64,000 nt of DNA from Escherichia phage nieznany, in sequence record NC_052659.1; one strand, 5' to 3'. A model generated the notes under the pieces. It did not search any database and had not been told where the DNA came from. It saw nothing but the letters and a program-made list of their open reading frames with translations. Shown here piece after piece: positions 17,242 to 34,300 of the stretch. The position numbers were made by a program, and so were the translations under genes. Numbering within the stretch: position 1 is the first letter of the stretch; each line of letters begins with the position of its first letter.

Positions 17242-17483
17242 AATACTTGTTGGTTGTGTTTGAAAATATTTGTTTTGCAATAGGGTTGTTTGTTGTAATT
17301 TTTGTATTGACAAGCGTAATCAACGGCAGTAAAGTGAGTTTATACCGAGATGGAGAGCAACTTTATTGCTTCTCTGGAGATTTCAAACACAGATGTATTA
17401 ATAGCCAAAACGAGGAAAGCAAATATGAAAAAACTAGCCCTGATTTTAATTGGTTGTATCTTTTTAACAGCTTGCGAGGATGA
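17238..17483 (+). CDS. possible small membrane protein (81 aa)
   Basis: Hydrophobic N-terminus; weak SD; overlaps the lipoprotein gene in another frame, so uncertain. Confidence 0.25.
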   Translation: MKYLLVVFENICFAIGLFVVIFVLTSVINGSKVSLYRDGEQLYCFSGDFKHRCINSQNEESKYEKTSPDFNWLYLFNSLRG

Positions 17484-17862
17484 GACAAATCCTGCACAAT
17501 ACCAACAACCTCCTCAACAATACGCTCAACAAGGATCTGACGGAGATACAACTATTATCAACAATGGTGGCGGTTCTAGTAGTAGCGGTGTTGGTGAGTT
17601 TGCTACAGGTATGTTGTTAGGGCATATGATGAGTGGCGGTAGTAATCGTAGCAGTGGGGATTATAACGATAACAGAACGATTATTAATAAGCATTATAAT
17701 ACACCTAAACCGAAAACTAATTTTTATGGTAAGCCTAAACAAGAGATAAAAACTTATGAAAAGCCGAGACAAACTTTTAAAACAAATAGTAGCTATACAA
17801 CTCGTAAATCTTACAATAGCCCTTTAAGTAAAAAGAGTTCATCTCGTAGCAAGCGACGTTAA
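17425..17862 (+). CDS. lipoprotein (signal peptide with lipobox LTAC), G/S/N-rich, basic C-terminus
   Basis: MKKLALILIGCIFLTAC at the in-frame ATG 17425; track ORF begins upstream at 17350. Confidence 0.55.
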   Translation: MKKLALILIGCIFLTACEDETNPAQYQQPPQQYAQQGSDGDTTIINNGGGSSSSGVGEFATGMLLGHMMSGGSNRSSGDYNDNRTIINKHYNTPKPKTNFYGKPKQEIKTYEKPRQTFKTNSSYTTRKSYNSPLSKKSSSRSKRR

Positions 17863-17876
17863 TAAGGAGAAAAACA

Positions 17877-18470
17877 ATGACAATTTCTATTCGTACTTCC
17901 ATTACAGGTGTTAAAAGTTTGCCTAATGCTTTGCAAATCACACGTGCTTTGAGGGATACGTTCTCTGCTGTGGATGAGCATAAGATGCTCGATAATCTCT
18001 CAAATTGGCCCTATTTTCATTATTTTAAAAATGAAGACGACGAGTTTATAGACGCTGTTTCTTACGGTTATGATTTCGGTAAGGAGGTTTCTCCTGAAGA
18101 ATTTGTAGTTATGGTGTTCCCAAACGGTTTGCCTACTCGCAGTAAACGTAAAAAAGGACCAAAAAACAAGAAACGTGCTACTAATAAAGCTACCATTTTC
18201 TTTACTGATGGCACACAATATACGATTAAAGATTTTGAAGAGGTATCTTATACAGCAGGTGGGAATCTTTCTTTCTACACCATCAAAAAACAAAACTCTA
18301 CGTTCAGCCATGTTTCTAACATGATTGAAATGTTAGTAGAAGATATTGAAAGCGTAGCTGTGTTAGGTATGCATAAAAGCTTTTTAATTACAAATATTTC
18401 AGATTTCAGTGCACGTTTATCTGGTCCTGATTTTGAAACCACGACCACGCATTTCACTTTTAAGGTGTAA
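17877..18470 (+). CDS. hypothetical protein (197 aa)
   Basis: TAAGGAG SD; no recognisable motif. Confidence 0.5.
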   Translation: MTISIRTSITGVKSLPNALQITRALRDTFSAVDEHKMLDNLSNWPYFHYFKNEDDEFIDAVSYGYDFGKEVSPEEFVVMVFPNGLPTRSKRKKGPKNKKRATNKATIFFTDGTQYTIKDFEEVSYTAGGNLSFYTIKKQNSTFSHVSNMIEMLVEDIESVAVLGMHKSFLITNISDFSARLSGPDFETTTTHFTFKV

Positions 18471-18473
18471 GTT

Positions 18474-19064
18474 ATGTATACCGAGAGAGACTTGCAACTC
18501 TTGTGGTGGGAAGTGATGCAGGAAATAAAAGAAGATTTTCCTGTTTACTACAACATGTTACGTGAAGCAGGATATAAAGCTTGTGTTAGAAACAAAGTGA
18601 ATAACTCTTTCGGTTGGTGCAACTACCGAGATAAAATTGTTGTTGTAAATTGGCACTTGCATAAGAACTCTACAAGAGATATGATCGTGGATACAATGAA
18701 GCACGAAATTGCTCATGCTATTGATGGTTGTATGGGTAAGTTTAGTAGACACGGTGCTCATTGGCAAAAACTGGCAGCAGAGTTAGGGGCTAATCCTAAA
18801 GCCACTTCCAAAGAGCCGTTGAACCACGAATATAAATATGTTCTTGTTCTGGTAGATAGGTTTGCGACAAGATGTGTTAGAGGTTATAATCGTAAACCTA
18901 ATCGCATGTACCCAGGTAAGCAACCTAATATGTGGTTGAAATCAGATAAAGAAGGGACCGAAGGAAAATTATGGTTGTATAAATGGGACGATTGGGTTAA
19001 AGTAGCTAAAGAGTACGGTGTTTCACCATATATAAGAGATGCAGAAGAGGAGAATGAAGAATGA
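18474..19064 (+). CDS. SprT-like zinc metalloprotease domain protein
   Basis: HExxH motif in MKHEIAHAIDG with downstream HGAHWQKLAAELGA, typical of SprT-like domains. Confidence 0.65.
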   Translation: MYTERDLQLLWWEVMQEIKEDFPVYYNMLREAGYKACVRNKVNNSFGWCNYRDKIVVVNWHLHKNSTRDMIVDTMKHEIAHAIDGCMGKFSRHGAHWQKLAAELGANPKATSKEPLNHEYKYVLVLVDRFATRCVRGYNRKPNRMYPGKQPNMWLKSDKEGTEGKLWLYKWDDWVKVAKEYGVSPYIRDAEEENEE

Positions 19065-20173
19065 CAAGTCCATTTTTAAAAGCAGCTACTGGCGGTCAGA
19101 AGAAGCCTGAAATGAGCGTATTTGCTGCAACAACAGATGCAAGTAAATCTGTATTCGCTCCAAGCGTGTTAGATGCCAGTCCTGTTTATGCACCAGCGGC
19201 ACCGCAAGAAGTTCCAGTTTTGCCTTCTATGACCCGACAAGAGATCGAAGAGATTGGGGCAGAGGCAGGAACAACCTTGCGTTCCTTGAATGCCGAGGTA
19301 TTAAAACATCAACGTAGTAATCAAGGCGATCAGATGAGTGAACGACTCACAGCTTTGATTAAACAGGCAAAACAACTTGATCCAAACTCTATTAAACAAA
19401 GCAAGGGTATTACTAAACTCATTAAAAAAGTTATGGGTATGAAAGAAGATCTGTTTGGGGAGTTTGATAATGTTAATAACCGTATTGAAGAGTTGGTAAA
19501 AAACCTTCAAATGGATATTCGCAAAGAAGAAGATTCCTTGGTATATCTTGAAAAGCTACATCAAGCTATTGGACAATATGCTGCAAGTTTGAACCGAGAT
19601 ATGCAGCTTCTAACAGCAACCTATGAAAAAGAAGAACAAGCTTTGGCTGCTCTTCCAGAAGATGCAGTAGAACAGCGACAAGTGATCCGAGATACTTTGG
19701 ATCTTCTGGAGATTCGTATTGCAGATTTAAAAGCATTGCGCCTACTGTGTGTCCAAATGGGACCGCGTGTACAAGGTATGCAAAAAGTTTCTGCAAGCTT
19801 AATGCGATCTGCGCGTAACATAGTAAATAATGTTATTCCTGCTTACTCTGCTAACTTCTCAATGTATATCGAGAGCTTACGTCAAATGAAAGCAGCAGAG
19901 ACGCAGAATAACGTTCTTGATGAATTTAACCTGGCAATTAAACTGGGTAGCGATCTTGCCACACAGAATCAGATCGAAGCAGCAGCACTGGCTAACCGTC
20001 AAGTGTTGGATATTGAAACTCTGCGTCACGATCAGGAAAACTTGGTTAAGATGTTGGAAGAAACTAACCGCATCAATACGGAAGCCCGTGCTGCTCGTGT
20101 TGATTATATTAATGAAGTTCAATCTTTGGAAGACGGGATGGTAGCTGCTGTGAAACGAGGGCTTGGTAAATGA
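19061..20173 (+). CDS. all-helical coiled-coil protein, possible TelA-like
   Basis: 370 aa of heptad-rich helices; size and position between terC-like and terD-like genes fit TelA, but no diagnostic motif could be confirmed by eye. Confidence 0.35.
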   Translation: MTSPFLKAATGGQKKPEMSVFAATTDASKSVFAPSVLDASPVYAPAAPQEVPVLPSMTRQEIEEIGAEAGTTLRSLNAEVLKHQRSNQGDQMSERLTALIKQAKQLDPNSIKQSKGITKLIKKVMGMKEDLFGEFDNVNNRIEELVKNLQMDIRKEEDSLVYLEKLHQAIGQYAASLNRDMQLLTATYEKEEQALAALPEDAVEQRQVIRDTLDLLEIRIADLKALRLLCVQMGPRVQGMQKVSASLMRSARNIVNNVIPAYSANFSMYIESLRQMKAAETQNNVLDEFNLAIKLGSDLATQNQIEAAALANRQVLDIETLRHDQENLVKMLEETNRINTEARAARVDYINEVQSLEDGMVAAVKRGLGK

Positions 20174-20370
20174 GAATCCGTATCTATATAATTGATGAGG
20201 ACATTGGTGTCCGTTATGATGACGAAAAACGATTCGCGCCGATGGGAGGCATATATCCCCCAAGTGTTCTAGCAGTTTGTCGTGATTGTTATATTTATGA
20301 AGGTTGTCGTAACTTCCGTAAATTCGAACTCCTTGCAGATATTGACTTCAATGAGGAGGAGGAGGAGTAA
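20170..20370 (+). CDS. hypothetical protein (66 aa, acidic C-terminus)
   Basis: Coupled ORF. Confidence 0.4.
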   Translation: MRIRIYIIDEDIGVRYDDEKRFAPMGGIYPPSVLAVCRDCYIYEGCRNFRKFELLADIDFNEEEEE

Positions 20371-20543
20371 TGAAAATATTACGAGTGAATATTGAAACTG
20401 CTTGGTGTGGATGCAATGAGGTTGTGGATATCGAAATTGAAGATGATATGTCTCAAGAGGATATAGAAGATCTTGCACACGAAACCTTTCAGGACTATTG
20501 TAATTACGGGTTCCATATTTTAGAGGAGGAAGAGGATGTTTAA
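20370..20543 (+). CDS. small acidic hypothetical protein (57 aa)
   Basis: ATG overlaps upstream stop (TAATG) after GGAGGAGGAGG; below ORF-track cut-off. Confidence 0.35.
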   Translation: MKILRVNIETAWCGCNEVVDIEIEDDMSQEDIEDLAHETFQDYCNYGFHILEEEEDV

Positions 20544-20739
20544 CTACGATAACGACCCTAATATTATCCAGTTAACCCGACAAGAACTGATCACAATCAT
20601 TGAAGATGCTTTTATTGATGGCTGGAATACACAAGACAATGATTGGGGTGGACCCGAAGCTTTTCTGGAACATCATAAAGCTTATGGAGAATTTTGTGAA
20701 ACCACTGTAGCTCTTGATAATCTGAAGGAGGGTTTGTAA
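20536..20739 (+). CDS. hypothetical protein (67 aa)
   Basis: GAGGAGG SD. Confidence 0.4.
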   Translation: MFNYDNDPNIIQLTRQELITIIEDAFIDGWNTQDNDWGGPEAFLEHHKAYGEFCETTVALDNLKEGL

Positions 20740-21302
20740 TGGGTTGTTTTAGCTTTTTGTGCAAAGAATCGGGCAAAGCTGCCCTTTCTACTTCTTTCGA
20801 CGGATCACCTTGTTATCTCTTTCTTTTGAAGGACGGTGTTGTTATTGAAGAGATGTATGGCAACTATGATAGTTATGGTTGTGTTTTCTCTGGAAAGGAG
20901 GATGAAAATGGCGTTCGTGAACGGTTCGAATGGGCTATGGATTGGGGTAAGGTTTGTGATTTAATGCATTCCTCGAATCCAAGGGATGGTATCGCTATGG
21001 TGCTGGAAGAGTATTTTACAGGTGAAATCCCTACAGAACAATCTGACGGAGATCCTAACCAAGGTTGGGGTGATGGCGAAGAAGATCCAGATTGTTTTTT
21101 CAGCACAGAAAAGAATAAGTTTAAACGTGTTGACAACCCTTATCACAAAGTGCATAATACTCTCATTGAAACAGAAGATGACAAGATGGAAATTGAAGAA
21201 GATGATCCTCTTGTAACACTTCCTATAAGTGAGTTACAAAAGATCACTAAGGAAGCTTACGATTTGGGCTTCAAAATTGGTAGAGGAGGTATGCGTGTTT
21301 AG
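20739..21302 (+). CDS. hypothetical acidic protein (187 aa)
   Basis: Coupled ORF; no recognisable motif. Confidence 0.5.
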   Translation: MGCFSFLCKESGKAALSTSFDGSPCYLFLLKDGVVIEEMYGNYDSYGCVFSGKEDENGVRERFEWAMDWGKVCDLMHSSNPRDGIAMVLEEYFTGEIPTEQSDGDPNQGWGDGEEDPDCFFSTEKNKFKRVDNPYHKVHNTLIETEDDKMEIEEDDPLVTLPISELQKITKEAYDLGFKIGRGGMRV

Positions 21303-21573
21303 ATTCAATATTCAAGAAGAAAAAAGTCAGGATTTACCTATTGCTTTCGAAGATCTTGACGTAGGGGCCACATTCATGTATTATGATGCCTATGAAGACG
21401 CAGGGTTGGATACCTACCGTAACTTGGTGTTCATTAAAAATTCCACAAACAGTGCGATTTGTATTAATGGATCACTAGCACAACGAGGCTATACTCATTG
21501 CATCCCACCAGATACAAATATGGTGGAAGTAGATTTAGAAGTTACCAATATTACACTTAAGAAGGAGAAATAA
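21295..21573 (+). CDS. small protein, paralog A of a duplicated pair (precedes the vWA gene)
   Basis: GTG start after GAGGAGG, parallel to the GTG start of paralog B; shares FxFxIxEEK..DLDVGxTF.Y..A.DE.GLD and C-terminal ..ITLK with 22595-22864. Confidence 0.45.
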   Translation: MFRFNIQEEKSQDLPIAFEDLDVGATFMYYDAYEDAGLDTYRNLVFIKNSTNSAICINGSLAQRGYTHCIPPDTNMVEVDLEVTNITLKKEK

Positions 21574-21574
21574 T

Positions 21575-22369
21575 ATGTCCGAGAAAATCAGCCTGAAAAA
21601 ACGTCAAGAAAACCTTGCTTTCTCTCTGAAAAAGAATAAGAACCTGAATGAAGGTAAGATTGTTCTTCGTGTAGCATGTGCTCTAGATATTTCTGGTAGT
21701 ATGCATGGTCTATATTCTAGTGGGGTAGTGAGTGATTTTGTAGGTAAACTGCTTCCTTTTGGTATGCTGTTCGACGATAATCAACAAATTGATATGTGGG
21801 CCTTCAATACGAGTTCCCAAGAGCTTACTCCAGCAACAGCAGACGTTTACGATGACTATGTTGGTAAATGTATGCGTAATGTTCGTATCGGAGGTGGAAC
21901 AAATTACGCCCCTGTAATGGCAGATATCTACGATGAGTATTTTGGCACTGTTACCAAATATATTACCACTAAACAAGTGGTACAAGAGGAGGCTCCAAAG
22001 AAAGGCTTCTTTAATCGTCTGCTTGGTAAAACTGAAACAGTGTCTGTAGAGCGTGAAAAAGTTGTAGCTGTATCTGAACCAGGTGCTGACGTTACCCCTG
22101 GTGTTGTATTCTTCCAGACGGATGGTGAGAATGGTGATCCTAGTGCTGTTCGTCGTCTTATTGAAGAGAATAAGAATAAACCTATTTATTGGTTCATGGT
22201 TGGCGTTGGTAATGAGAAGTTTGGCTTCCTGAAAGAACTGGCAAATGCTTATGATAATGTTGGTTTTATTGGCATTAAAGATTTAGACTTGACAGATTCA
22301 GAGCTTTATGACAAACTCTTATCTGAAGAGTTCGGAGAGTGGGTTGTTAAAGTAGGTGCTAAAAAATGA
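21575..22369 (+). CDS. von Willebrand factor A (vWA) domain protein, TerY-like
   Basis: MIDAS motif DISGS (DxSxS) near the N-terminus; N-terminal MSEKISLKK echoes the TerD N-terminus. Confidence 0.7.
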   Translation: MSEKISLKKRQENLAFSLKKNKNLNEGKIVLRVACALDISGSMHGLYSSGVVSDFVGKLLPFGMLFDDNQQIDMWAFNTSSQELTPATADVYDDYVGKCMRNVRIGGGTNYAPVMADIYDEYFGTVTKYITTKQVVQEEAPKKGFFNRLLGKTETVSVEREKVVAVSEPGADVTPGVVFFQTDGENGDPSAVRRLIEENKNKPIYWFMVGVGNEKFGFLKELANAYDNVGFIGIKDLDLTDSELYDKLLSEEFGEWVVKVGAKK

Positions 22370-22614
22370 TCGACGAGCTTGCCTCTCAAGTCGTAGAAAA
22401 TTATTGGCGCGAGAGAGAAGCTTTCATTATGCGCAGTCTCAAAGAGTATTTCATTGGGACTGTGCGAATGGAAGATATTGTAAGTAGAGTAGAGATTCAT
22501 GTATGGCCCGATTATGAAGAATGGGTTGACAAAGAAAATGAAAATGCTATAATTCTTCGTATATACAAACCGGAGATAACATTAGGAGGAAGAAGTGTTA
22601 AACTTCGAAATTGA
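22366..22614 (+). CDS. hypothetical protein (82 aa)
   Basis: Coupled ORF. Confidence 0.45.
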   Translation: MIDELASQVVENYWREREAFIMRSLKEYFIGTVRMEDIVSRVEIHVWPDYEEWVDKENENAIILRIYKPEITLGGRSVKLRN

Positions 22615-22864
22615 TGAGCAAAAAGTAAATAAACGATGCCTTACCATTAAAGATTTGGATGTAGGAGATACTTTCGTCTATGAAAATGCATTTGACGAAA
22701 ATGGTTTAGACCTTAGTGAAATCATTGTTTATTTAAAAGTAGATGATGGGGAAAATGATTATTCTGCTGTAGAACTAAACCATCATGCACAATTAGTATC
22801 AATCCAAAACACATCTAAGCTTTTGGAAGTAGAATTGACTGTAACTGGTATTACACTTAAATAA
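22595..22864 (+). CDS. small protein, paralog B of a duplicated pair (precedes terD)
   Basis: GTG start after AGGAGGA; sequence parallels 21295-21573. Confidence 0.45.
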   Translation: MLNFEIDEQKVNKRCLTIKDLDVGDTFVYENAFDENGLDLSEIIVYLKVDDGENDYSAVELNHHAQLVSIQNTSKLLEVELTVTGITLK

Positions 22865-22879
22865 TAGAGGAGACAAAAG

Positions 22880-23482
22880 ATGACTGATAAAATTTCCCTG
22901 AAAAAAGGCTCTAGCGAAAAAATTTCCCTGAAGAAAGTTGCTCCGGCTCTGAAAGAACTGCGCCTGGAATTCTCTTGGAAATCTGATTCTAAACTGGATC
23001 TGGATGTAAGTGCACTGGTTTGTCGTCACAATGCCGCTGGCAATCCTGAAATGCTGTCTGCACGTCATCTGGTTTGCTATGCTAACAAGTTTGATCCTGA
23101 ACGTTCTACCTTCGCTGGTGACGATGTTCGTGATGGGACTGGCAGCATGGAGCAGATTGATATTACTCTGGCTAAAATCTCTCCTGATGCACAAGAGATT
23201 GCCTTTGTTCTGACCATTGATGATGATACAGGTCTGAAACGTTTTGGTCATGCTTCTGAAGGTATGCTTAAAATCTTCGACTCCGAGCGTAATGTGGAAA
23301 TTCTGGATTTTGACTTCCTGGCTCCTGAAGTAGCTGGCAACACAATCTGCCACGTGGCTTCCCTGGTTCGTGAAGATGGAGAATGGAAGCTGAAAGCATA
23401 TGGTGTAGGTAAAGCTGGTCTGGATATTTGCGATGTGGTGATGGCCTTCGGTGGTAAAAAAGAATGGTATGAATGTCCATAA
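22880..23482 (+). CDS. terD: TerD-family protein
   Basis: N-terminal KISLKKGSSEKISLKK..LDLDVSALV and C-terminal GEWKLKAYGVGKAG match the TerD domain along its length; about 200 aa as in bacterial TerD. Confidence 0.85.
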   Translation: MTDKISLKKGSSEKISLKKVAPALKELRLEFSWKSDSKLDLDVSALVCRHNAAGNPEMLSARHLVCYANKFDPERSTFAGDDVRDGTGSMEQIDITLAKISPDAQEIAFVLTIDDDTGLKRFGHASEGMLKIFDSERNVEILDFDFLAPEVAGNTICHVASLVREDGEWKLKAYGVGKAGLDICDVVMAFGGKKEWYECP

Positions 23483-23500
23483 TAATTAACAAATGATTTT

Positions 23501-23521
23501 GAGGGGGAGAAGTCCCCCCTC
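23501..23521 (+). terminator. GC-rich hairpin, possible terminator
   Basis: GAGGGGGA-GAAG-TCCCCCCTC immediately after terD; weak T-tract. Confidence 0.35.
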
Positions 23522-23550
23522 TTGCAATAAAGCCTCTATCGTGTTATACT
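23522..23550 (+). promoter_or_regulatory. sigma70-like promoter with extended -10 (TTGCAA-17-TGTTATACT)
   Basis: -35 23522-23527, TGn plus -10 TATACT 23545-23550; upstream of TTG start 23583. Confidence 0.5.
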
Positions 23551-23582
23551 AGAAGTTCGTTAACTTAAAAAGGAGGCAAAAT

Positions 23583-24104
23583 TTGCTGATAAAAAACTTT
23601 GTAACAGTTGCGTTACTATCCTTAACTGCTTTTACATTTACACCTGTTGTGGCGAAAGCCGAAGCTGCAAACGTAAAAACCGCTAAAGTAGTTCACAAAT
23701 GTACAAAGCAATATAATGATAAAATTCTATTAGCTTGTGCAATTTACGCAGAAGGTCGCGGTCTGGGTAAAAAAGGAATGAATGCCGTTGGGAATGTGGT
23801 AATCAACAGAAGAAATGATGCCTACTTCCCTAACACAGTCAAGGGAGTCTTGTTCCAGAAAGGGCAATTCTCATATGCGAAAACTTTTAACGTGACAGAG
23901 AAAGATAAGTGGCAGGAAGCAAAAGCAATAGCGGAGCGTTTACTTTATTTAGAGAAACATTTTCCTGAATTGCGGTCTGTTTTAGATGTTACTAAAGGTG
24001 CTCTATACTTCAAGAAACGGAATATAAGGACACACTGGGAGCGTGATATGCGTCTTGTTTATCGAGATAAAGTGCATGGTTTCTATCTACCAAAGGGGAG
24101 TTAA
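23583..24104 (+). CDS. secreted SleB-like cell wall hydrolase
   Basis: Signal peptide MLIKNFVTVALLSLTAFTFTPVVAKA; AIYAEGRG, GNVVINRR and QFSY motifs typical of the SleB/Hydrolase_2 family; TTG start after AAGGAGG. Confidence 0.6.
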   Translation: MLIKNFVTVALLSLTAFTFTPVVAKAEAANVKTAKVVHKCTKQYNDKILLACAIYAEGRGLGKKGMNAVGNVVINRRNDAYFPNTVKGVLFQKGQFSYAKTFNVTEKDKWQEAKAIAERLLYLEKHFPELRSVLDVTKGALYFKKRNIRTHWERDMRLVYRDKVHGFYLPKGS

Positions 24105-24105
24105 A

Positions 24106-24390
24106 ATGCAAGAAGATAATACTGTTGTTGTAGCAAGTTACCTGGTTGTCGGTCTTACCGAAGAGGACGTATACTACACCCGTAAACATTTGGAAGCATA
24201 CGCTACTTTGTTTATGGAAGATGAAAAGGATGTAGATAAATATAGCATTGATATGATCAACGACAGTATTTATCCTTGTATGGTTCTTAAAGTAGATGCT
24301 GTGCTGTGGGAGCGTTTTGCAAGGACTCATGATGCTGTAGAATGCTCCGCAGTAATGTCTCAAAACAACATTTTAGGGGAGATTCACTGA
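24106..24390 (+). CDS. hypothetical protein (94 aa)
   Basis: ATG 24106 with AGGGGAG SD (track ORF begins at 24043). Confidence 0.45.
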   Translation: MQEDNTVVVASYLVVGLTEEDVYYTRKHLEAYATLFMEDEKDVDKYSIDMINDSIYPCMVLKVDAVLWERFARTHDAVECSAVMSQNNILGEIH

Positions 24391-24620
24391 TGGGAGAAGT
24401 CATTGAAGTAAATTTTCGCACTAAACAAAAAGTGCAAAAATATGTTGTTATTAAAAACATTTGCGTTGTCTGCTTCAATACTGTAATATACGATTCACGA
24501 CGCGGAGAAAACGAAAATGAACCTTACATTGAAATTTCTAAGAACAAAGGTCAATGTATTTGTAAGAACTGTGCAGTAGCTATTAAGGAGGTTGTAAATG
24601 AAAACGCTTGGGACCAATGA
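24390..24620 (+). CDS. small zinc-ribbon protein (76 aa)
   Basis: CVVCFN..CICKNC two CxxC pairs; TGATG start-stop overlap. Confidence 0.4.
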   Translation: MGEVIEVNFRTKQKVQKYVVIKNICVVCFNTVIYDSRRGENENEPYIEISKNKGQCICKNCAVAIKEVVNENAWDQ

Positions 24621-24789
24621 AACTGGCGAGATCTCTCTTCAAGAAGTGACAAACGACAAGCTGATTAAACTACGGGATGTAGCTCGTGACCATCTCCAAG
24701 AATCTTTTAAAGAATATATGGAAGCACGAGATCGTGTCATCCAAATCCAACAAGAAATGATTAAACGTGGGATTGTAGCTGACAGTTAA
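24598..24789 (+). CDS. hypothetical protein (63 aa)
   Basis: AAGGAGG SD. Confidence 0.35.
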   Translation: MKTLGTNETGEISLQEVTNDKLIKLRDVARDHLQESFKEYMEARDRVIQIQQEMIKRGIVADS

Positions 24790-24805
24790 TATAACGGAGG
24801 GGAGA

Positions 24806-25369
24806 ATGATTTATTATATTACTCCCTATCTGACAGGAAATATCGGCAAGGCTATCAATGAAGCTATTGCCGTTCTTCCAGATGATAGTTGGGTGTGCTT
24901 AAGAGATACCGATACAATGTTCCTCCTGCCTGATCAACCATCTATGCTTGAAGAGCTTATTATGTCAAACCCGCCTTTTGATGTAATAGGTGCAACTTGT
25001 AACAGGTTAGGTAGTGGTTATCAGCTTTTCTCTAACCAAATTAACGATGATCCAAATATTCTAAACCATATAGAATATGCTAAGATTGCAAGAGAATATC
25101 ATAAAGTGAGTGTTGAAGAAGTTCCTTTCGGAACACCTCTGGCAGGTTTCTTTTTGCTTTTTAGAAAATCATTGTGGAATGAAATTCCTTTCGAAGAAAA
25201 ATCTATCCAATTCGACCTAATTTTCTCTCGCACTTTACATGAAAAAGGAAAAAGGTTAGGATTGATGCGGGGAATGTATCTGTTTCACATTTACAGATTA
25301 GGTCAAACAAATCCTCAACGGTCTATACATCATTTATTACACTGTCACGATCACAGTAAAACTATCTAG
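24806..25369 (+). CDS. possible GT-A fold glycosyltransferase
   Basis: WVCLRDTDTMFL candidate DxD motif; weak assignment. Confidence 0.3.
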   Translation: MIYYITPYLTGNIGKAINEAIAVLPDDSWVCLRDTDTMFLLPDQPSMLEELIMSNPPFDVIGATCNRLGSGYQLFSNQINDDPNILNHIEYAKIAREYHKVSVEEVPFGTPLAGFFLLFRKSLWNEIPFEEKSIQFDLIFSRTLHEKGKRLGLMRGMYLFHIYRLGQTNPQRSIHHLLHCHDHSKTI

Positions 25370-25377
25370 GAGAGAAA

Positions 25378-26061
25378 ATGGAAAATATTAAAATCGGAGT
25401 GGGTGTTATCACTGTAGGTGTCCGTCCACTTAAAGACTATCTTGTAACAGATCCACATGCAGATTTTCGAGTATTCAACGATCCAGATCGTAAAGGTGTA
25501 GCTTACGCCAGGAATGAACTTATGCACCAGTTTTATGAAGAAGGTTATGATTATTGGTTTATTTTTGACGACGATTGCTACCCAATCATGGAGGGATGGG
25601 AAACATATTTTGTAGATCAAGCTGTCTCTGGAGGATGGGATTTCTTTGGTATGCCGGAGTATTTCAAAGATAAAGTTGTTGGGAGTAAAGGAGAAGTTAT
25701 TCTCTGGGAACTTGCAATGTGTCAATTTGCAATGTATTCTCGTGCCGTTGTTGAGAAGATGGGTTATTTCCGCCCTTACACTCACGGCTATGGTTTTGAA
25801 GATGCTGAATGGGTACACCGTTTGAAAGCTGCTGGTTTGAATCAGGGCATTCAGGCAATACCTTGTCCACTTCATATCATGGCTTATATCCACCCAGACG
25901 ATGTTTTTGGAAACAATCCTATGCCTTTTGCTAATCTGACAAAAGAAGAGAAAGAAGCTGCTATTGGCATTAACTGGGAAGAATATAAAGCGTCTTTAGA
26001 AGATATTAAAAATGGGAAAATCCGAATTTCTTATGAGGAGGCACTGGCACATGTCAAATAA
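25378..26061 (+). CDS. glycosyltransferase family 2-like protein
   Basis: GVAYARNELM and YWFIFDDDCYP (DxD) in the arrangement of GT2 enzymes. Confidence 0.45.
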   Translation: MENIKIGVGVITVGVRPLKDYLVTDPHADFRVFNDPDRKGVAYARNELMHQFYEEGYDYWFIFDDDCYPIMEGWETYFVDQAVSGGWDFFGMPEYFKDKVVGSKGEVILWELAMCQFAMYSRAVVEKMGYFRPYTHGYGFEDAEWVHRLKAAGLNQGIQAIPCPLHIMAYIHPDDVFGNNPMPFANLTKEEKEAAIGINWEEYKASLEDIKNGKIRISYEEALAHVK

Positions 26062-26998
26062 AAAATGGACTAAACTGAAAATTGATGCAAAACCTCACAG
26101 TGGTTGTGATTATCATCGTATTGTTATACCATTTAACAACAATAATCTTCAACCTAAGAAAGATGTTGTTGTGTTTAACCGTATTCACTCTAAAGGTGCA
26201 GAATATGTTTTGTCCCTGAAACGTCAAGGTGTTAAGATTGTTGTAGATTTAGATGATTTCTACCAACTTAATCCAGAACATTATTTAGCAAGTCTATACG
26301 AGTCAAACACCCATTCTATTGTAGCTATGGTTAAGCTTGCTGATGTGGTCATTGTGACTACGGAATACTTGGCATATAAGATCCGTCACTTAAATAGGAA
26401 TGTTGTTGTGATCCGAAATGCACTTCCTTTTGATAGCGGACAATTCACTTTGTCAAATGATCGTTCATCCGGTACCCCTGTCGTATGGGCTGGCGGTGCT
26501 AGTCACGAACCCGACTTACGACTAGTCTCTAATACTTTCGACGATGACCTTCTTACTATTGCGGGATATGAGGCATCACAGAGCATCACGGGACAAGAGT
26601 GGATTAAGATTCGCAGAAATTTACCAAATGCCAAATATAAAGCCGCTGTAAAAGATTTAGATAATTACATGAGTGTTTACGAGGGTCATGCTATTGCTAT
26701 AGCTCCTCTGGTAGATAACGATTTTAATAATTGTAAAAGTAATCTCAAAATCTTGGAAGCTGGGGCAAAAGGTATTCCAATTGTTTGTTCTAAGGTATTA
26801 CCTTATTTTAACCCTGTAGATGCTCGCGCTGTTGCTTACGCAGAGAATAAAGCAGAATGGCATTACGAAATTGTTAAGCTTCTTCGCAATCCGAACTATC
26901 GGGAAGATCGTGGCTTGTTCTTAGCGGAACATGTTCGAACACATTATAATCTGGCAGATGCAAACGAATTGCGACGCCAGGTTATTGAAAGTTTGTAG
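26051..26998 (+). CDS. glycosyltransferase-like protein, paralog 1
   Basis: Shares about 35-40% identity by eye with 27006-27950 (HRIVIPF/HRVVLPY, TPVVWAGG/TPLVWAGS, SNLKILEAGAKGIPIVCS/SNLKILEAGAKGLPLICS); C-terminal motif resembles the GT-B E..G.P motif; ATG 26051 with GAGGAGG SD. Confidence 0.4.
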   Translation: MSNKKWTKLKIDAKPHSGCDYHRIVIPFNNNNLQPKKDVVVFNRIHSKGAEYVLSLKRQGVKIVVDLDDFYQLNPEHYLASLYESNTHSIVAMVKLADVVIVTTEYLAYKIRHLNRNVVVIRNALPFDSGQFTLSNDRSSGTPVVWAGGASHEPDLRLVSNTFDDDLLTIAGYEASQSITGQEWIKIRRNLPNAKYKAAVKDLDNYMSVYEGHAIAIAPLVDNDFNNCKSNLKILEAGAKGIPIVCSKVLPYFNPVDARAVAYAENKAEWHYEIVKLLRNPNYREDRGLFLAEHVRTHYNLADANELRRQVIESL

Positions 26999-27005
26999 GT
27001 GAAGT

Positions 27006-27950
27006 ATGGGACAAATAATTCTTGACAATCGTAACGGAATCAATTATAGTGTCTGCGATTTCCATAGGGTAGTGCTGCCTTACTCAAGGCAGTTCTCTTC
27101 ACAACCTAAATACAACGTTTTCGTTTTTAACGGAGTGCCAACAAAAGGTAAAGAGGGCTTTTTAGCCCTTAAAAACCTGGGCTTTAAAATGGTTATGGAT
27201 TTGGATGACTCTTTAGTTATTCCAAAAGGACACATGTTAGAAGGTATTTTTGAATCAGGTATTCGTGAACATTTAAAATGGTTTTTAGAGCACAGTGATC
27301 TTGTTACAACTACGACACCTGCCTTGCAAGTTGAACTTTCACAATACAATGATAATGTGCACATAATCCCTAATGGACTTCCTTACGATGAAGGTCAATT
27401 TGTGTTGACCCGTGATCGCTACTCCAAAACTCCATTAGTCTGGGCTGGAAGTGAAACACATAAACAAGATTTGGCTATCTTGCCCGATTTTGGTAAAGAT
27501 CTTACAATATGTGGTTTTCGTAGGGATTCTGAAGTTTTAAGTAGTCGTGAATGGTCTTTAATCAGGGAAAATGTAGCACCAACTTGTGTTTATGAAGGTG
27601 TAAGACCATATGCCAACTACATGGAATCTTACGATGGTCATCAAATCAGTCTTGCACCATTGATCGATAACGTGTTTAATAATGCAAAAAGCAATCTTAA
27701 AATTCTTGAGGCAGGTGCTAAGGGTTTACCTTTAATCTGCTCTCCTCGTGAGAATTATCATACACAAGAGTTTAAAGATTTGTTATTCTTTGCTGAAACA
27801 CCTTCCGAGTGGAAAGATATTACGGAATACTTATTAAGTGCTCCCGATGTTTGCATGGAGAAAGGATTAGCATTAGCTAAGTATGTCAGGACTCATTATC
27901 ACATTGATGTGTTGAATGAGCGTCGTAGACTTTTATTTGAGGAGCTATAA
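27006..27950 (+). CDS. glycosyltransferase-like protein, paralog 2
   Basis: Tandem paralog of 26051-26998. Confidence 0.4.
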   Translation: MGQIILDNRNGINYSVCDFHRVVLPYSRQFSSQPKYNVFVFNGVPTKGKEGFLALKNLGFKMVMDLDDSLVIPKGHMLEGIFESGIREHLKWFLEHSDLVTTTTPALQVELSQYNDNVHIIPNGLPYDEGQFVLTRDRYSKTPLVWAGSETHKQDLAILPDFGKDLTICGFRRDSEVLSSREWSLIRENVAPTCVYEGVRPYANYMESYDGHQISLAPLIDNVFNNAKSNLKILEAGAKGLPLICSPRENYHTQEFKDLLFFAETPSEWKDITEYLLSAPDVCMEKGLALAKYVRTHYHIDVLNERRRLLFEEL

Positions 27951-28228
27951 TGATTAACACTTTTGATTTTGAATACACCACTCGTAACGGGAAAGCCTTG
28001 GTTGTGGAGGTGGATTACTATTATGAAGAACCTAATCCACTTTCTCGTGAAAGCGATTGGGATTACCACGGAGGGCTTTTAATTGACGGTATTCGTTTTT
28101 ATGAAGGATCTACAGAAGTTTTTGAAAAAGATTTAAATGTAACTGTAGCAGAAATTGCTTTCCAATTTAGAAAGCACATGGAAGAACTAGAAGCAGAATA
28201 TATGATGGAGACTAACGAACCATTTTAA
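27950..28228 (+). CDS. hypothetical acidic protein (92 aa)
   Basis: Coupled ORF. Confidence 0.45.
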   Translation: MINTFDFEYTTRNGKALVVEVDYYYEEPNPLSRESDWDYHGGLLIDGIRFYEGSTEVFEKDLNVTVAEIAFQFRKHMEELEAEYMMETNEPF

Positions 28229-28240
28229 CAGGAGAACAAA

Positions 28241-30019
28241 GTGTCGCACATTATAACTAAATATGGATTTGATGTTGATCTTAGCAAGGAAGGGCATACA
28301 GGTTGTCCGCGCTGCATGAAAAATGGCAAGGATCGCTCTCGTAATAACCTGATGGTTTATGGATTAGATTCTAATGGAGAGCATAAAGGTGCTAAGTGCT
28401 TTGCGTGTGAATACACTATTCCTAGCGTAGAATGGTTACGAGAAAATGGTGAAGTTTTAGAAGAAGAGGAGGAGATTGTGGGTTCGGAATTTAATAAACA
28501 GATTCATCGTAAAATTGTTCAAGAAACATCAACCAACCCACGTGGTTATCGAGGCATTAAAGAAAAAGTTTCATCTTTCTATGGTGTTCGTTATGAATAC
28601 CGTCAGGAAGGGGATCAGATGGTAGTAGAAAGTTGTTTATATCCAACTACTATCGGTAAAGAATTGGTTGGTTTTAAGCGTCGTATTCATCCTAAAGATT
28701 TCAGTAAACCTATTGGTCAAGTAGGTAAAGATGTAGATCTTTTTGGACAAATTCGTTTTGCAGACCGTTCTCATACTGTGGTAATTACAGGTGGTGAACA
28801 CGATGCTCTGGCAGCTTATCAAATGCTGTCTGAAAACTTGGACAACAAATATGAACTTCCAGCAGTAGTTAGTGGCACAACTGGTGAAACCAGTATGTAT
28901 AAACAAGTTCAGGCACAATACCCTTTCTTTGAAAAATTTAAGAAGATTATTGTTTGCATGGATAATGACAAAGCAGGTAATGAGGCATTTGAAAATATTG
29001 TTAAGGTGCTGCCTCGTAACAAAGTCTACCGTATGCAGATGGATCTTAAGGATGCCAATCAGTATCTGGAAGAAGGTCGTGCAAAAGATTTCGTAAAAGC
29101 TTTTTGGAGTGCTCGTCTATACACCCCAGCAGGTGTTTATGCTTCTAATGTCTTGTATGAAGCTGCATTAGAATGCTTGGAATCCAAGATGATTACCTTG
29201 CCTCCTTTTATGCGTGTTGCTGCAAATATGCTGGGTGGTGGTTTAGTAGAGGAAGAGATTACAGTCATCCTGGCAAAGACCAGTATCGGTAAAACTTTGA
29301 TGGTGAACGAGATCACCAAACATATTATTGTTGCGCACCCAGAACATACCCTAGGTATTCTGTCCTTGGAAGCAACTTATAAGAAATATTCTCGTAACCT
29401 GTTGTCCTCGTTCCTGCATATTCCTCTACACAGGAAAACACCGGAAGAGAAATTTCAAATCTTGGAAGAGAATAAAGAAAAAATCCTAGATTTTTACGAA
29501 AGAGAAGATGGATCACCACGTTTTTATGTGTGTGATGATCGTGGAGCAGATGTGGAGTCTATCAAAGAAAAAGTTTTGGAGATGATCATCTATTTTGGAG
29601 TAACAATTCTTGTTATCGACCCTTATTCTGATTTGCTTTCTGGTATGGATGTTCAAGCCCAGGAAGAGTTAGCAACATGGTTGAAGCGCATCATGAAAGA
29701 GTATGCTATAACTATTATCGTCATCTCACACGTTAAGAAATCGGCTAATGGTGGCAATGAACACTTAACAGAGGACGATGCAATGGGTAGTAGTTTCTTG
29801 GCTAAAGGTGCTGGTATTACCTTGGCTTTGGAACGAGATAAAGCCGCTGAAGACCCTGTAGAACGCAATACGACTCATTGCTTTATCCTAAAAAACCGTG
29901 AGTTCTCGGAAACTGGTCCGGCAGGGCAGTTTTACTATGACATTAGAACTGCAACTCTGCATGACAAAGAGCAGTATTTCAACAATCCTGCTAATTTGCC
30001 TACGGATAGCAACTACTAA
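28241..30019 (+). CDS. T7 gp4-like bifunctional DNA primase-helicase
   Basis: N-terminal Cys4 zinc ribbon (CPRC..CFAC), TOPRIM acidic motifs (VITGGEHD, CMDNDKAG), DnaB-like Walker A AKTSIGKT and Walker B LVIDPYSD; GTG start. Confidence 0.85.
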   Translation: MSHIITKYGFDVDLSKEGHTGCPRCMKNGKDRSRNNLMVYGLDSNGEHKGAKCFACEYTIPSVEWLRENGEVLEEEEEIVGSEFNKQIHRKIVQETSTNPRGYRGIKEKVSSFYGVRYEYRQEGDQMVVESCLYPTTIGKELVGFKRRIHPKDFSKPIGQVGKDVDLFGQIRFADRSHTVVITGGEHDALAAYQMLSENLDNKYELPAVVSGTTGETSMYKQVQAQYPFFEKFKKIIVCMDNDKAGNEAFENIVKVLPRNKVYRMQMDLKDANQYLEEGRAKDFVKAFWSARLYTPAGVYASNVLYEAALECLESKMITLPPFMRVAANMLGGGLVEEEITVILAKTSIGKTLMVNEITKHIIVAHPEHTLGILSLEATYKKYSRNLLSSFLHIPLHRKTPEEKFQILEENKEKILDFYEREDGSPRFYVCDDRGADVESIKEKVLEMIIYFGVTILVIDPYSDLLSGMDVQAQEELATWLKRIMKEYAITIIVISHVKKSANGGNEHLTEDDAMGSSFLAKGAGITLALERDKAAEDPVERNTTHCFILKNREFSETGPAGQFYYDIRTATLHDKEQYFNNPANLPTDSNY

Positions 30020-30049: not shown

Positions 30050-30078
30050 TTGACAACTTTGCGGAAGGGACTTATACT
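30050..30078 (+). promoter_or_regulatory. sigma70-like promoter (TTGACA-17-TATACT)
   Basis: -35 30050-30055, -10 30073-30078; upstream of ATG 30112. Confidence 0.55.
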
Positions 30079-30552: not shown

Positions 30553-31347
30553 TTGAGCAAGTTGAACACACTTGATCAATATTACACTAACCCCGCTTAT
30601 GCGGGGTTCTTATGTGATAAGATCAAAGAAATTTTTGGAGAGGAAGCTAACTACGTAGAACCATCTGCGGGAGAAGGAGCTTTCTCTTCTTGTTTTAAAA
30701 ACATAACTTCTTTTGATATTGATCCTAAGTTTGAAGATTGTATTGAGGCAGATTTTTTAGCTCAATCTGTAGAGTCTGTTGGTAGTGTAACTGCTTTTGT
30801 CGGTAATCCTCCGTTTGGAAAAAATGCTAGTCTTGCCATTAAGTTCTTTAACCATTGTGCTGAAATGTTGGATAACGAAGGTGGTATTTGTTTTATCTTG
30901 CCTCGCACATTTCAAAAAATCTTTTTTGCACACAAACTAAATCCCCACATGCATCTTCTTTACGAAGAAGAATGTCCAAAAGGATCTTTTATTCTTCATG
31001 GAGAACCTTGGGATGTTCCTTGTGTATTCCAGATATGGACTAAACGCAACGAGAAGCGTTCTCCCGTTGTTTTAGGAGAAAATCGACTATTCGTATTAGG
31101 CAACAGTAAAGACTACGACATAGCCGTTAGGAGAGCGGGAGCAAGTGCAGGTAAAGTGTTATCAGAAGAAGATTCTTTATCTGAAGCATCTACCTATTTT
31201 TTAAAAGCCTTGACTTCTGATCTTAAAACGCGTATCATTGAGGCTTACCCGTTACTTAAAGCTGAAGCTAGTAAAACTGCGGGAGTAAGAAGTTTAAGTT
31301 TAAAAGAACTTCAGTGGGTTCTGGAGAACATTAGAAAGGAGGAATAG
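30553..31347 (+). CDS. DNA methyltransferase (amino-MTase, probably N6-adenine)
   Basis: DQYYTNPAYA (motif X-like), EPSAGEGAF (AdoMet motif I) and GNPPFG (catalytic motif IV); TTG start after AAGGAGGA. Confidence 0.65.
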   Translation: MSKLNTLDQYYTNPAYAGFLCDKIKEIFGEEANYVEPSAGEGAFSSCFKNITSFDIDPKFEDCIEADFLAQSVESVGSVTAFVGNPPFGKNASLAIKFFNHCAEMLDNEGGICFILPRTFQKIFFAHKLNPHMHLLYEEECPKGSFILHGEPWDVPCVFQIWTKRNEKRSPVVLGENRLFVLGNSKDYDIAVRRAGASAGKVLSEEDSLSEASTYFLKALTSDLKTRIIEAYPLLKAEASKTAGVRSLSLKELQWVLENIRKEE

Positions 31348-34300
31348 TGAGTAAGTTTACATGGGATATTGAAGCAAACGGATTGTTGAATAATGACACT
31401 ATTGATTATTTAGCTAGTCCTTATCGTCTCAAAGACACATTTCAAATGCACTGTATTGTCTTAGAGAACCATGAAACAGGAGAAATAGTAGCTTTCCACG
31501 ATGGCCCTAAATACATTTTTGATGGTCGTCCTTATGAAGAGTCAGATGATAAATATACATATGTTCTTAAAGAATATGTGGCGCAAGATTACACACATTT
31601 TCAACTAAAAGATTTCCCAGATTTTATTAATCATGAAGGTTATTTTAAAGACAAGCCTGAATATTTGGTTGAAATGGCTGTGGCACACAACGGTATCAAC
31701 TATGACTGGTTGGCTACAAAACTGTTTTATGGATTAGATTACAGTGTTAAATATAACACGTGGGGTAAAAGCAAGGTAAAACTTATTGACTCCTTAATTT
31801 TGAGTAAAGTGTTAAACCCAGATCGAAAGATTGAGGGCAAATCAGGACATAGTTTGGCAGCACTTTCTCGAAAGGCAGGTGGGGATGTAAAAATAGATTT
31901 CCGTAAAGAGATTCCAGAAGAAGATCGATTTAAGACTTTTGCTGCGGATATGCTTTATTACTGTATCTATGACAACAAAGCCAATACGAGCGTATATAAT
32001 TACCTTATGGAAGAGTGGGGTGATTATGATAAATGGGAAGGTCCATTTGAACTTGAACAACGTGTAGCAGACATTATTACACGCCAGGAACACCGTGGGT
32101 TTGCTTTTAACATGAAGCAAGCAGAAGAGAACCTTGCTTTTTTAGATGCAGAAATGGAGCGTCTTCGTTTACTCGTTGAGCCTATTTTGCCACCTAAACC
32201 AGCAACAAAAGGTTATCTTAAGGCTTTTATTCCACCTAAGTTGCAAATTAAAAAGAACTTAGAGCCAACTAACCATATGATCAATTTTGCTAAGAAACAT
32301 GATGGTCATTTGGAAGAGAGGGATGGAGATTGGTGGTTAGTGATGTTGGGGAAAGAGTGGAAACTGCCAGTTGCAGCAGATGAGCCTTTGTGTGATCCTA
32401 ATATCCCTGCAACATTGAACGATACAACCCATATTAAAAACTGGCTTGTAGGATTAGGTTGGGTACCATCGGAATATAAAGATAAAGATTTGACTCTTAA
32501 ATCTGGCACCAAGATTAAAAAGAGTGAGGAAGAACTTCAGAAAGGTATTCGAGCTTACGTTGAGCAAACTCTATCTTCTAATTTTTGTCAAGACCGTTGT
32601 GATCATCTGGAGTGCACACCGGAAACCTTGGAAAGGAAGATTCAAGAGCGTATAGCAAAAGGTAAAGGTCGAGGTCTTAAAGTATTGACTAACCCATGTT
32701 TTACCAAAGGTCAGGAAAAAGAAATCTGTCCTAACCTGCAAGCTTTGGGTGAGAAATTTCCTTATGCTACACAGATTGTAGAATACTTAACGTATAAACA
32801 CCGTAGGAACTCTATTTTAGGTGGTGGTGCCGATTGGGAAGAAGACGAAGAAGATCAAGAATACAACAAAGGTTTCTTGGCAGCAGTTCGTGCAGATGGA
32901 CGTATACCTACGCCAGCGGCTACATGCGATGCAGCAACCTCTCGTATGAAGCATAGGTCTGTAGCCAATATTCCTCGTGTTACCTCTTTGTTTGGATGGC
33001 AGATGCGTAACCTGTTTGGTGTAGAGGTTCCTAAATACTTCCAGATTGGTTATGACTTTGATTCATTAGAGGCGAAGATTGAGTCGCATTATACGTGGAG
33101 ATATGATAATCCTGATCATGCTTACTGTAATGCACTTCTGTTAGAAAAACCAAACGATGTGCATACTATGATGGCAAAACATATTACTGATATTATTGGA
33201 CGTAAGTTTGAACGTGGTCCTGCTAAGAGCGTTAAATACGGTTGTGTACCTGTAGATAATACGGAAGTGTTAACAAGAACGGGTTGGAAGAAACGTAAAG
33301 ATCTTTTTGTAGGGGATGAAGTTTTATCTTATAATACTCACACCGCTCTTTACGAATATACCCCTATTCTTAAGCTGTGGGACTATAACGATGCAGAAGT
33401 TGTCTCTCTCGGTAACAAGTGGTTCAAAGTAGAAGTTACTAACGATCATATGTGGATTAACGCACAGAGAAAAACTATGCGATCAGATGGTAACAATGTT
33501 AAGTATATGCAAGTGGAGCGTAGATCTACAGAGGATTTAAACTCGGAGTCAAACATAATTGCAGCAGGGCGATCTGGTGTGGTGTCTACTCTAACAGTGG
33601 AAGAAGGTCGTTTCTTAGGCTGGCTTCTTTCGGATGGCTACTATAAGTGGTCTGGCAAAGCCAGAAATAAAGTAATGGGTATTACAGTCACGGTAGATCA
33701 AGATGAGAAAAAATTCTTAGAAGAAGCACGTGAGGCTGTGGGAGATATCTTCACATTTGACGAGTATGTATCTGGAACGATGCATTCATTACGTCCTAAT
33801 AAGAGTCAGTTTAGGGAATTTTTGACTAAATGTGGCGTTGAAGTGGGTCAAAATAAGCACGAAGTGGACTGGTCTACATTAATTGCTAATCAAGGTCAAG
33901 CTGTGTTGGAAGCATTCTTAGAGGCATTCTGGATGGCAGATGGTCATAAGCGTCCAAACGGCAGTCTTGTTATCCGTCAAAAGAAAGGTAAGATTAGCGA
34001 CGCTGTTTCTTTGGCTATCAATATGACAGGTAATATTGCGTATGGTTCTGTTCAAAAAGATGGCATGTTAACGTTGGCAATCAATAACGGACAAACTATT
34101 TCAGGACAGAGGTTGACAAAAGCTTTTTCACGAGTAACAGATGTATTCTGTATCTCAACCAAGAATGAATCTTTTGTTATGCGTCAGAATGGTTTTATCA
34201 CGTTGACAGGTAACTGCACGTACGGCGCTCAAGCAGACAAGGTTGCTAAAACAATTGGTAGCGATAAATACACAGGGCAACTGGTGTTCGATGCTTTCTG

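Follow-up and report, generated by a model that had tools for sequence, protein, structure and literature searches.

A phage-specific cassette of putative glycosyltransferases beside the replisome genes of Escherichia phage nieznany, with virion proteins as candidate acceptors

Escherichia phage nieznany (sequence record NC_052659.1) is a Phapecoctavirus of the subfamily Stephanstirmvirinae, of which we analysed a stretch of 64,000 nucleotides (hereafter the window, whose positions are used throughout). Four consecutive genes on its plus strand, all present where the original prediction, made from the sequence alone, had placed them, constitute a glycosyltransferase block: g1 (24806-25369, 187 amino acids, phrog_14179), g2 (25378-26061, 227 amino acids, phrog_2456), g3 (26051-26998, 315 amino acids) and g4 (27006-27950, 314 amino acids), the last two both belonging to phrog_7162. 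We propose that these genes represent a conserved, phage-specific cassette of four soluble cytoplasmic glycosyltransferases (GTs), two of them unrelated GT-A enzymes and two paralogous GT4-like GT-B enzymes. The existence of the block and its glycosyltransferase nature are already known: its orthologs in Escherichia phage ESCO13 (NC_047770.1), gp230-gp233, are each named 'glycosyltransferase' in RefSeq, the corresponding PHROGs all carry that label (E 1e-79 to 1e-149), and in phage PaulScherrer (Bas60) the orthologous genes were annotated by the BASEL authors, two of them as 'putative glycosyltransferases' and the other two, corresponding to g3 and g4, as 'putative disaccharide synthases'. None of the four proteins has a match in NCBIfam. 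The stretch 23500-28300 is 99.6% identical to ESCO13, and at least 80% of it is covered in 69 phage records.

The four genes are packed as in an operon, with a gap of 8 nucleotides between g1 and g2, an overlap of 11 nucleotides between g2 and g3 and a gap of 7 nucleotides between g3 and g4, and the stop of g4 overlaps by 1 nucleotide the start of a translationally coupled open reading frame (ORF) of 92 amino acids (27950-28228, plus strand, phrog_4240, E 6.4e-33). The longest reading frame of g3 opens at 26012; the ATG at 26051, which RefSeq uses as the start, has a GAGGAGG Shine-Dalgarno sequence about 8 nucleotides upstream. As had been predicted, the block is flanked by a cell-wall hydrolase with secretion features on one side and by replisome genes on the other: a Hydrolase_2/SleB-like protein (23583-24104), which starts with a signal-peptide-like sequence and is separated from g1 by three small ORFs, and, downstream of the 92-residue ORF, a primase/helicase (28241-30019) followed by a DNA polymerase (31347-34916). 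A promoter and terminator scan found no plus-strand terminator inside the block; for promoters the scan was uninformative as a whole (32 promoter-like sites observed against 23.8 ± 4.2 expected), the only plausible intergenic ones being at 23522-23550, ahead of the hydrolase gene, and at 30050-30078, past the primase gene. The block is probably co-transcribed with the replisome genes. No transmembrane segment was detected in g1-g4, their 19-residue Kyte-Doolittle means peaking at 0.76-1.65, and g1, g2 and g4 are acidic (net charges -4, -14 and -9; isoelectric points 4.9-6.1), g3 having an isoelectric point of 8.5.

The product of g1 corresponds to a minimal GT-A fold glycosyltransferase, with a single Rossmann-like alpha/beta/alpha nucleotide-sugar-binding domain and, after a beta-strand, the motif C-L-R-D34-T-D36-T-M, in which Asp34 and Asp36 are invariant among 23 homologs down to 45% identity. 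A fold search of BFVD with g1 returned a Cellulophaga homolog and otherwise generic GT-A matches only, without a specific mycobacteriophage link. g2 is unrelated to g1 in sequence, and searches of PDB sequences with either protein, by sequence and by profile, gave nothing useful. In g2 (PHROG match, E 6.9e-79), both Asp64-Asp65-Asp66, within FIFDDD, and a Y-G-[FY]-E-D motif are invariant in 14 homologs, so that the DxD motifs noticed by the original prediction in the first two genes are conserved in both.

Taken by itself g2 falls below the Pfam thresholds of GT2 (12.9 versus 23.3 bits) and GT7C (14.4 versus 23 bits). An exhaustive profile search yielded 963 clusters of relatives and, among 81 of these sampled, 37 match GT2 (best E 2e-17) and 35 match Glyco_transf_7C (best E 4e-11), with 12 touching TAGT, marginally (best E 4e-5). 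The best single Pfam match of g2 itself is to TAGT, the TET/JBP-associated glycosyltransferases (PF20691; E 0.0013, 19.2 bits versus a gathering threshold of 27.5, residues 33-68), and it also matches phrog_842, a beta-glucosyl-HMC-alpha-glucosyltransferase (HMC, hydroxymethylcytosine), with E 5e-6. Because its relatives fit GT2 and GT7C far better, we attribute both matches to the common DxD region only. Motifs and relatives, from which its fold is read, support g2 as a GT-A glycosyltransferase of GT2/GT7C type; its membership of TAGT was considered and rejected, the match being sub-threshold, limited to the DxD region, not accompanied by a TET partner and not preferred by the relatives.

g3 and g4 are 42% identical across 303 amino acids (E 2e-78), far beyond chance, which bears out the tandem paralogy that had been predicted for them. 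Both have the two Rossmann-like domains, with a cleft between them, of a GT-B fold, g3 (PHROG match, E 7.3e-149) through its paralogy to g4, and the GT-A and GT-B folds on which the original prediction was to be judged are in this way supported at fold level. As to its more specific claim of a GT-B-like C-terminal motif, g4 just passes the cut-off of PF13524 (25.2 versus 25), and most homologs of the pair have a precomputed match to this family, but g3 stays below threshold (19.2 and 21.4; Glyco_trans_1_4 and Glyco_trans_1_2) and the canonical GT4 E-x7-E motif is incomplete, since, in a register read by eye from the sequence and not from structural superposition, the second glutamate (Glu235) is kept and the first is an alanine in g4 or a cysteine in g3. 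The corresponding segment, [AC]-K-S-N-L-K-I-L-E235-A-G-A-K-G, includes the invariant Lys228 and Lys232, and the residues that do not vary in either paralog group suggest that g3 and g4 are both active. A profile of the pair gave marginal GT4 matches in the PDB (TreT, PglA and BshA-like enzymes, E 0.002-0.03). The structural neighbours of g4 are headed by PglA, WlaC and PimA, with WaaG and WbnH lower, its best matches also include the small-molecule GTs sucrose-phosphate synthase, BshA and TreT, and GT4 enzymes are closer to it than the DNA GTs of phage T4.

We identified the same genes, accompanied by a single GT-B gene, in phages of other types. In a prophage contig of Serratia sp. M24T3 (L008), a g1-like gene (40% identity, E 2e-53), a g2-like gene (36% identity, E 1e-43) and one GT-B gene (51% identical to g3 and 39% to g4) stand in the same order as in the window, between the lysis genes and the HNH, terminase and capsid genes. 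A lambdoid contig (L010) has a g2-like gene and a GT-B gene between a Q-antiterminator/HicAB region and the lysis genes, a P22/Sf6-like contig (L009) has a GT-B gene and a g2-like gene between the large terminase and portal genes, and a distant Stephanstirmvirinae-like contig (L011) keeps the order g1, g2, one GT-B and then primase. The 92-residue ORF has a 35%-identical counterpart after the GT-B gene of L011 and none in the three small-phage cassettes. From these homologies, g1-g2-g3 is a mobile cassette, shared with unrelated HK97-like, lambdoid and P22-like phages, with g2 plus g3 as its conserved core; in the small phages it usually occupies late or head-module positions. The lone GT-B of the four other phages is always closer to g3 (41-51% identity) than to g4 (36-40%), and for this reason we regard g3 as the ancestral-type copy and g4 as a diverged tandem duplicate, specific to the Phapecoctavirus/Justusliebigvirus lineage. 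These distant-homolog results, namely the mobility of the cassette and the origin of g4, appear to be new, as we found no report of them in the literature searched.

Comparison of Phapecoctavirus with Justusliebigvirus gives identities of 66-77% for the GTs and of 70% for the primase/helicase; that the GTs are as well conserved as this essential protein indicates strong purifying selection on them. Wherever a genomic context was recovered for one of the three GT families, it was a phage or a prophage and in no case a bacterial polysaccharide cluster; among 50,697 phage records, relatives of g2 beyond its own lineage are present only in about 350 Mycobacterium phages. The g1-like domain of Cellulophaga phage phi18:1 forms the C-terminal half of a protein with two GT domains, whose gene lies between the portal/head-morphogenesis genes and those of the protease and major capsid protein. 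Directly upstream of this gene lies phi18:1 gp40 (L007:5868-6335), annotated as 'DNA methyltransferase', which matches PF13578 (Methyltransf_24), a domain of the TylF-like class that is also fused to a GT in gp108 of mycobacteriophage Che8; gp40 is more likely a sugar O-methyltransferase. We also noticed five records bearing the block under the name 'Campylobacter phage' (A150, MG065639; A145, MG065645; B15, MG065650; C3, MG065656; A110a, MG065689). B15 is about 98% identical to the window phage across the GT region and the other four match at the level of Justusliebigvirus (amino acid identities of 66% for g1, 74% for g2 and 76% for g4), and contamination or mislabelling almost certainly accounts for the Campylobacter jejuni host label of all five.

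A dTDP-L-rhamnose pathway was noted in these phages before (PMC7552041), and we confirmed that the rml set is complete: ESCO13 gp085-088 are RmlD, RmlC, RmlA and RmlB, with Pfam matches to RmlD_sub_bind (1e-73), dTDP_sugar_isom (1e-66), NTP_transferase (7e-73) and a 4,6-dehydratase-type family (about 1e-79), respectively. Adjoining nrdAB, this operon falls outside the window, some 70 kb away from the GTs. In tblastn searches, RmlC and each of the GTs were found in essentially one phage set (104-105 Escherichia, 8-10 Klebsiella, 3 Phapecoctavirus, 3 Justusliebigvirus and 5 'Campylobacter' records per search), and PaulScherrer was confirmed to have both the four-gene block and RmlC.

The original prediction saw no base-hydroxymethylase in the window, which is correct and holds also for the whole genome of ESCO13, save for a divergent ThyX-like gene. 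A tblastn search for ThyA in the window and the whole ESCO13 genome, with E. coli ThyA as the query, gave a best E of 0.54, Pfam scans of 38 unannotated or vaguely annotated ESCO13 proteins revealed no TET/JBP or other base hydroxylase, and no TET/JBP protein is annotated in the ESCO13 record. The ThyX-like gene, ESCO13 gp098, encodes an unusually long (332 amino acids), divergent protein of the ThyX type of flavin-dependent thymidylate synthases (Thy1, E 5e-8), which aligns with the C-terminal two-thirds of the Pfam model only and is followed by an NT5C-like deoxynucleotidase; the pair (L005:11641-13257, record 41640-43256), hypothetical in RefSeq, is located outside the window, near nrdAB and rml. 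gp098 is most simply an ordinary dTMP synthase.

We hypothesize that g1-g4 act in sequence, one sugar each, to build a short rhamnose-containing oligosaccharide, for which at least one of the enzymes would take dTDP-L-rhamnose from the phage RmlB/A/C/D operon and the others would take host UDP-sugars, and that the acceptor is not DNA but one or several proteins of the phage's own virion, which would receive a glycan coat like that of cluster-F, O and C mycobacteriophages. Catalytic activity, donors, order of action and acceptor are all parts of this model that we infer, with unequal confidence. It is very probable that the block encodes four active GTs of one pathway: unity of the pathway is suggested because the genes are tightly coupled, no internal plus-strand terminator is present and the order g1-g2-GT-B is kept in L008 and L011. 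The complete model, with its four cytoplasmic steps, its rhamnose and its virion acceptor, is put forward tentatively, as the leading explanation but one that is somewhat less likely than not. Among the roles named by the original prediction (glycosylation of hypermodified DNA, modification of host surface polysaccharide for superinfection exclusion, and glycosylation of virion proteins), we rank the last first and consider DNA the least likely.

Virion proteins are favoured as acceptor by the homology of g2 to a putative component of a mycobacteriophage glycosylation locus, by the late and head-module positions of the cassette in small phages and by the context of its relative in phi18:1. Residues 6-203 of g2 align with the N-terminal GT-A domain of gp105 of the cluster-F phage Poenanya (blastp E 2.8e-15, profile E 3e-16), with common motifs R-x-G-[IV]-A-x-A-[RK]-N, F-x-F-D-D-D-C-Y-P and G-[YW]-G-[FW]-E; gp105 passes the Pfam GT2 threshold (24.3 versus 23.3). 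Two genes downstream, in the same locus, Poenanya gp107 is the ortholog of Che8 gp110 (87% identity), to which an essential role in capsid glycosylation is ascribed (PMC12363180, citing Freeman 2023), and the capsids of the cluster-F phages Che8 and Rita bear glycans (PMC11256854). As these sources describe them (PMC12363180; PMC11256854), the mycobacteriophage virion-glycosylation loci (Che8 gp108-110, Corndog gp38 and Myrna) are, like the present block, phage clusters of small soluble GT-A enzymes, and the g1-like GT of Cellulophaga is paired with the same PF13578 domain that is fused in Che8 gp108. They differ in having no GT-B enzymes, whereas the window phage has two and its own dTDP-rhamnose pathway, and in being placed at the genome end, whereas the block considered here lies among replisome genes and belongs to a phage of a Gram-negative host.

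Several observations weigh against virion proteins as the acceptor. The block adjoins primase and polymerase genes, the usual neighbourhood of DNA-modifying GTs as well, and not structural genes; g1-g4 have no detectable similarity to Che8 gp109 or to the GT25-like gp110, and g2 matches Che8 gp108 only marginally (E 0.006-0.012); and no distinctive Ser/Thr-rich O-glycosylation tract was found in the capsid, decoration, tube, sheath or fibre proteins of ESCO13. That the cassette passes between phages whose virions are not homologous speaks for an acceptor of general occurrence, for instance DNA or a molecule of the host, and morons (lysogenic-conversion genes) of temperate phages also typically occupy such late-region sites.

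The GTs could alternatively remodel the host envelope, a reading with a serious case that we nonetheless judge unlikely. The enzymes would then use phage-made dTDP-rhamnose at the cytoplasmic face of the inner membrane, on undecaprenyl-diphosphate-GlcNAc (Und-PP-GlcNAc) or on lipid A-core, and the product would be exported by host Wzx/WaaL, masking receptors in the enterobacterial common antigen (ECA) and the outer core of lipopolysaccharide (LPS), with superinfection exclusion as a result, or sparing the progeny adsorption to debris. Und-PP-GlcNAc is the primer common to ECA and O-antigen, and rmlBACD together with GT2- and GT4-like GTs resemble an O-antigen cluster from which the host-supplied wzx, wzy and initiating transferase have been removed; compared with true O-antigen and spore-crust clusters (rmlBDAC with GT2 and GT4/CgeB-like enzymes; SpsA, SpsI-L and CgeB in B. 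subtilis), however, an initiating phosphoglycosyltransferase, a flippase and a polymerase are lacking, rml is remote from the GTs and the GT families occur in phage contexts only. Several of the top structural neighbours of g4 (PglA, WlaC and PimA, and lower down WaaG and WbnH) act on lipid-linked or membrane-associated acceptors, ECA and LPS outer core are reported as receptors of these phages (PMC8594841), surface modification was proposed by the authors of the ZCKP1 study (PMC6141743), the cassette moves among Enterobacterales phages with unrelated virions, and in L010 it adjoins a HicAB moron island. Nevertheless, the system has no membrane component: g1-g4 are devoid of transmembrane segments, and the genome annotation lists no gene like those of Gtr, Wzx or Wzy, the Gtr-type set for O-antigen modification (GtrA flippase, GtrB bactoprenol GT and the integral-membrane transferase GtrC) being likewise absent from it. 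In addition, a virulent phage has little time for surface remodelling, and relatives of g1 and g2 are found in phages of Bacteroidota and Actinobacteria, whose envelopes are quite different. Slightly less likely still is another cytoplasmic acceptor, which could be a non-structural phage or host protein, modified for host takeover or anti-defence (compare the rhamnosylation of elongation factor EF-P by EarP), or else a lipid or small molecule, for which the nucleoside-like metabolite suggested for the neighbouring Ter/PRTase/HAD cluster is one possibility. In favour of this, all four enzymes are soluble and g1, g2 and g4 acidic, they would be expressed with early or middle replisome genes, g4 resembles small-molecule GTs and the BASEL label 'disaccharide synthase' for g3 and g4 points in the same direction; the block also follows closely on TelA, vWA-TerF and TerD genes in the window and in L011, with PRTase, HAD and Macro genes further upstream. 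This linkage is not conserved, though, the cassettes of L008, L009 and L010 being without Ter genes, and on these grounds we rejected a functional link between the block and the Ter cluster as a general rule; moreover, the data yield no specific acceptor candidate, so that this explanation is a residual category and not a positive model.

In DNA hypermodification, the GTs would add rhamnose or other sugars to a modified base as a protection against nucleases, like the glucosyltransferases of T-even phages or the arabinosyltransferases of RB69 and DLP3. Such a role was proposed in the literature (PMC7552041; PMC10844046) and fits with the position of the block beside primase and polymerase and of the rml operon beside nrdAB, with the divergent ThyX-like gene and NT5C-like nucleotidase near that operon, and with DNA being an acceptor common to every phage backbone that carries the cassette; a small point in its favour is a gene of L009 (16754-17359, minus strand) for an Nmad5 protein ('nucleotide modification associated domain 5', E 1.8e-41), inside the structural module. 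We consider it very improbable all the same, because no pathway to a hydroxylated base is present and relatives that carry the block are reported as sensitive to restriction. The known routes to glycosylated pyrimidines in phage DNA all begin with a thymidylate-synthase homolog or a TET/JBP dioxygenase (PMC13326640), and T4 alpha-GT and beta-GT, as well as the 5-hydroxycytosine (5hoC) arabinosyltransferases of RB69, DLP3 and HY126, depend on a thymidylate-synthase-family enzyme for 5-hydroxymethylcytosine or 5hoC, of which none was found here in the searches for ThyA and for base hydroxylases described above. T-even and 5hoC systems confer broad resistance to restriction, whereas the Justusliebigvirus relatives Bas60-62 are 'exceptionally susceptible' to type I, II and III restriction-modification despite a putative dTDP glycosylation machinery (PMC8594841; restated in PMC10844046), and Bas60 is the phage PaulScherrer, in which block and RmlC were confirmed. 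The weak matches of g2 to TAGT and phrog_842, which might speak for DNA, span about 36-40 residues around the DxD motif; g2 shares with TAGT a GT-A fold, predicted in its case, and the occurrence in phages, but no TET/JBP partner was found for it in the genome scans. Furthermore, g4 is structurally less close to the T4-type DNA GTs than to GT4 enzymes, three of the four proteins carry a negative net charge, and the small temperate phages with the cassette have no base-modification genes in the sequence at hand (L008 and L010). A variant that is, if anything, harder still to credit is a rhamnose-containing modification without a ThyA- or TET-type hydroxylase, either through gp098 and the NT5C-like protein or directly on a canonical base or the backbone, which would not block type I-III restriction but could counter other defences; it would explain both the replisome location and the transfer between phages with unrelated virions and, if true, would be a new class of DNA hypermodification.

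That a 150-kb phage has multiple GTs will not surprise specialists, but a conserved rhamnose glycosylation system in coliphages used for therapy is a worthwhile question. Both Phapecoctaviruses and the phi92-like Justusliebigviruses, coliphages with a broad host range that have been isolated again and again for use in therapy and biocontrol, maintain four GTs and a full dTDP-rhamnose pathway, on which selection is as strong as on the primase. Should virion proteins be the target, these would be the first glycan-coated phages of a Gram-negative host found in the literature searched, and the glycan would directly affect, as has been demonstrated in mycobacteriophages, pharmacokinetics, stability in serum and recognition by antibodies; should it be the host envelope, a virulent phage would have a new, membrane-protein-free way of receptor masking. 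The three-gene cassette g1-g2-g3 is a compact unit for expression and testing.

Directly upstream of the GT block we observed a complete 'tellurite-resistance' (Ter) stress-response cluster (13597-23482), composed of HAD (13597-14250), a ComF-like phosphoribosyltransferase (PRTase, 14246-15070), Macro (15087-15557), TerC (15874-16845), TelA (19061-20173), vWA-TerF (21575-22369) and TerD (22880-23482); the contig L011 keeps TelA, vWA and TerD, then the hydrolase and then the GTs. The hydrolase itself, with the signal-peptide-like sequence LLIKNFVTVALLSLTAFTFTPVVAKAEA, is labelled 'endolysin' in RefSeq, and, as a separate Phage_lysozyme (ESCO13 gp082) and a spanin are encoded elsewhere, a second, secreted lysin in the early/middle region is odd. 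Between the primase and polymerase genes, 30553-31347 encodes a protein of 264 amino acids (phrog_5172) with weak likeness to Eco57I-type and phage DNA methyltransferases (Pfam E 0.017; phrog_799, E 1e-10), and ESCO13 has at least three further small 'DNA methyltransferase' genes. NADAR and Macro domains reverse ADP-ribosylation, and both are phage-encoded here, the first in ESCO13 (L003:22329-22871) and the second in the Macro protein of the window; the two proteins might serve in counter-defence against DarT-like systems that ADP-ribosylate DNA. The family-A DNA polymerase has 1189 amino acids in the window and 865 in ESCO13, owing to an insert of 324 amino acids (residues 633-956; 33243-34214) that begins with a cysteine, ends in TGN followed by a cysteine and contains the LAGLIDADG-like motifs LLSDGYY and FWMADGH. 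These features identify the insert as an intein with a homing endonuclease; it was found in only 10 phage records, at 99% identity or more, and its presence at this identity in both Phapecoctavirus and Justusliebigvirus-like genomes implies a recent horizontal spread.

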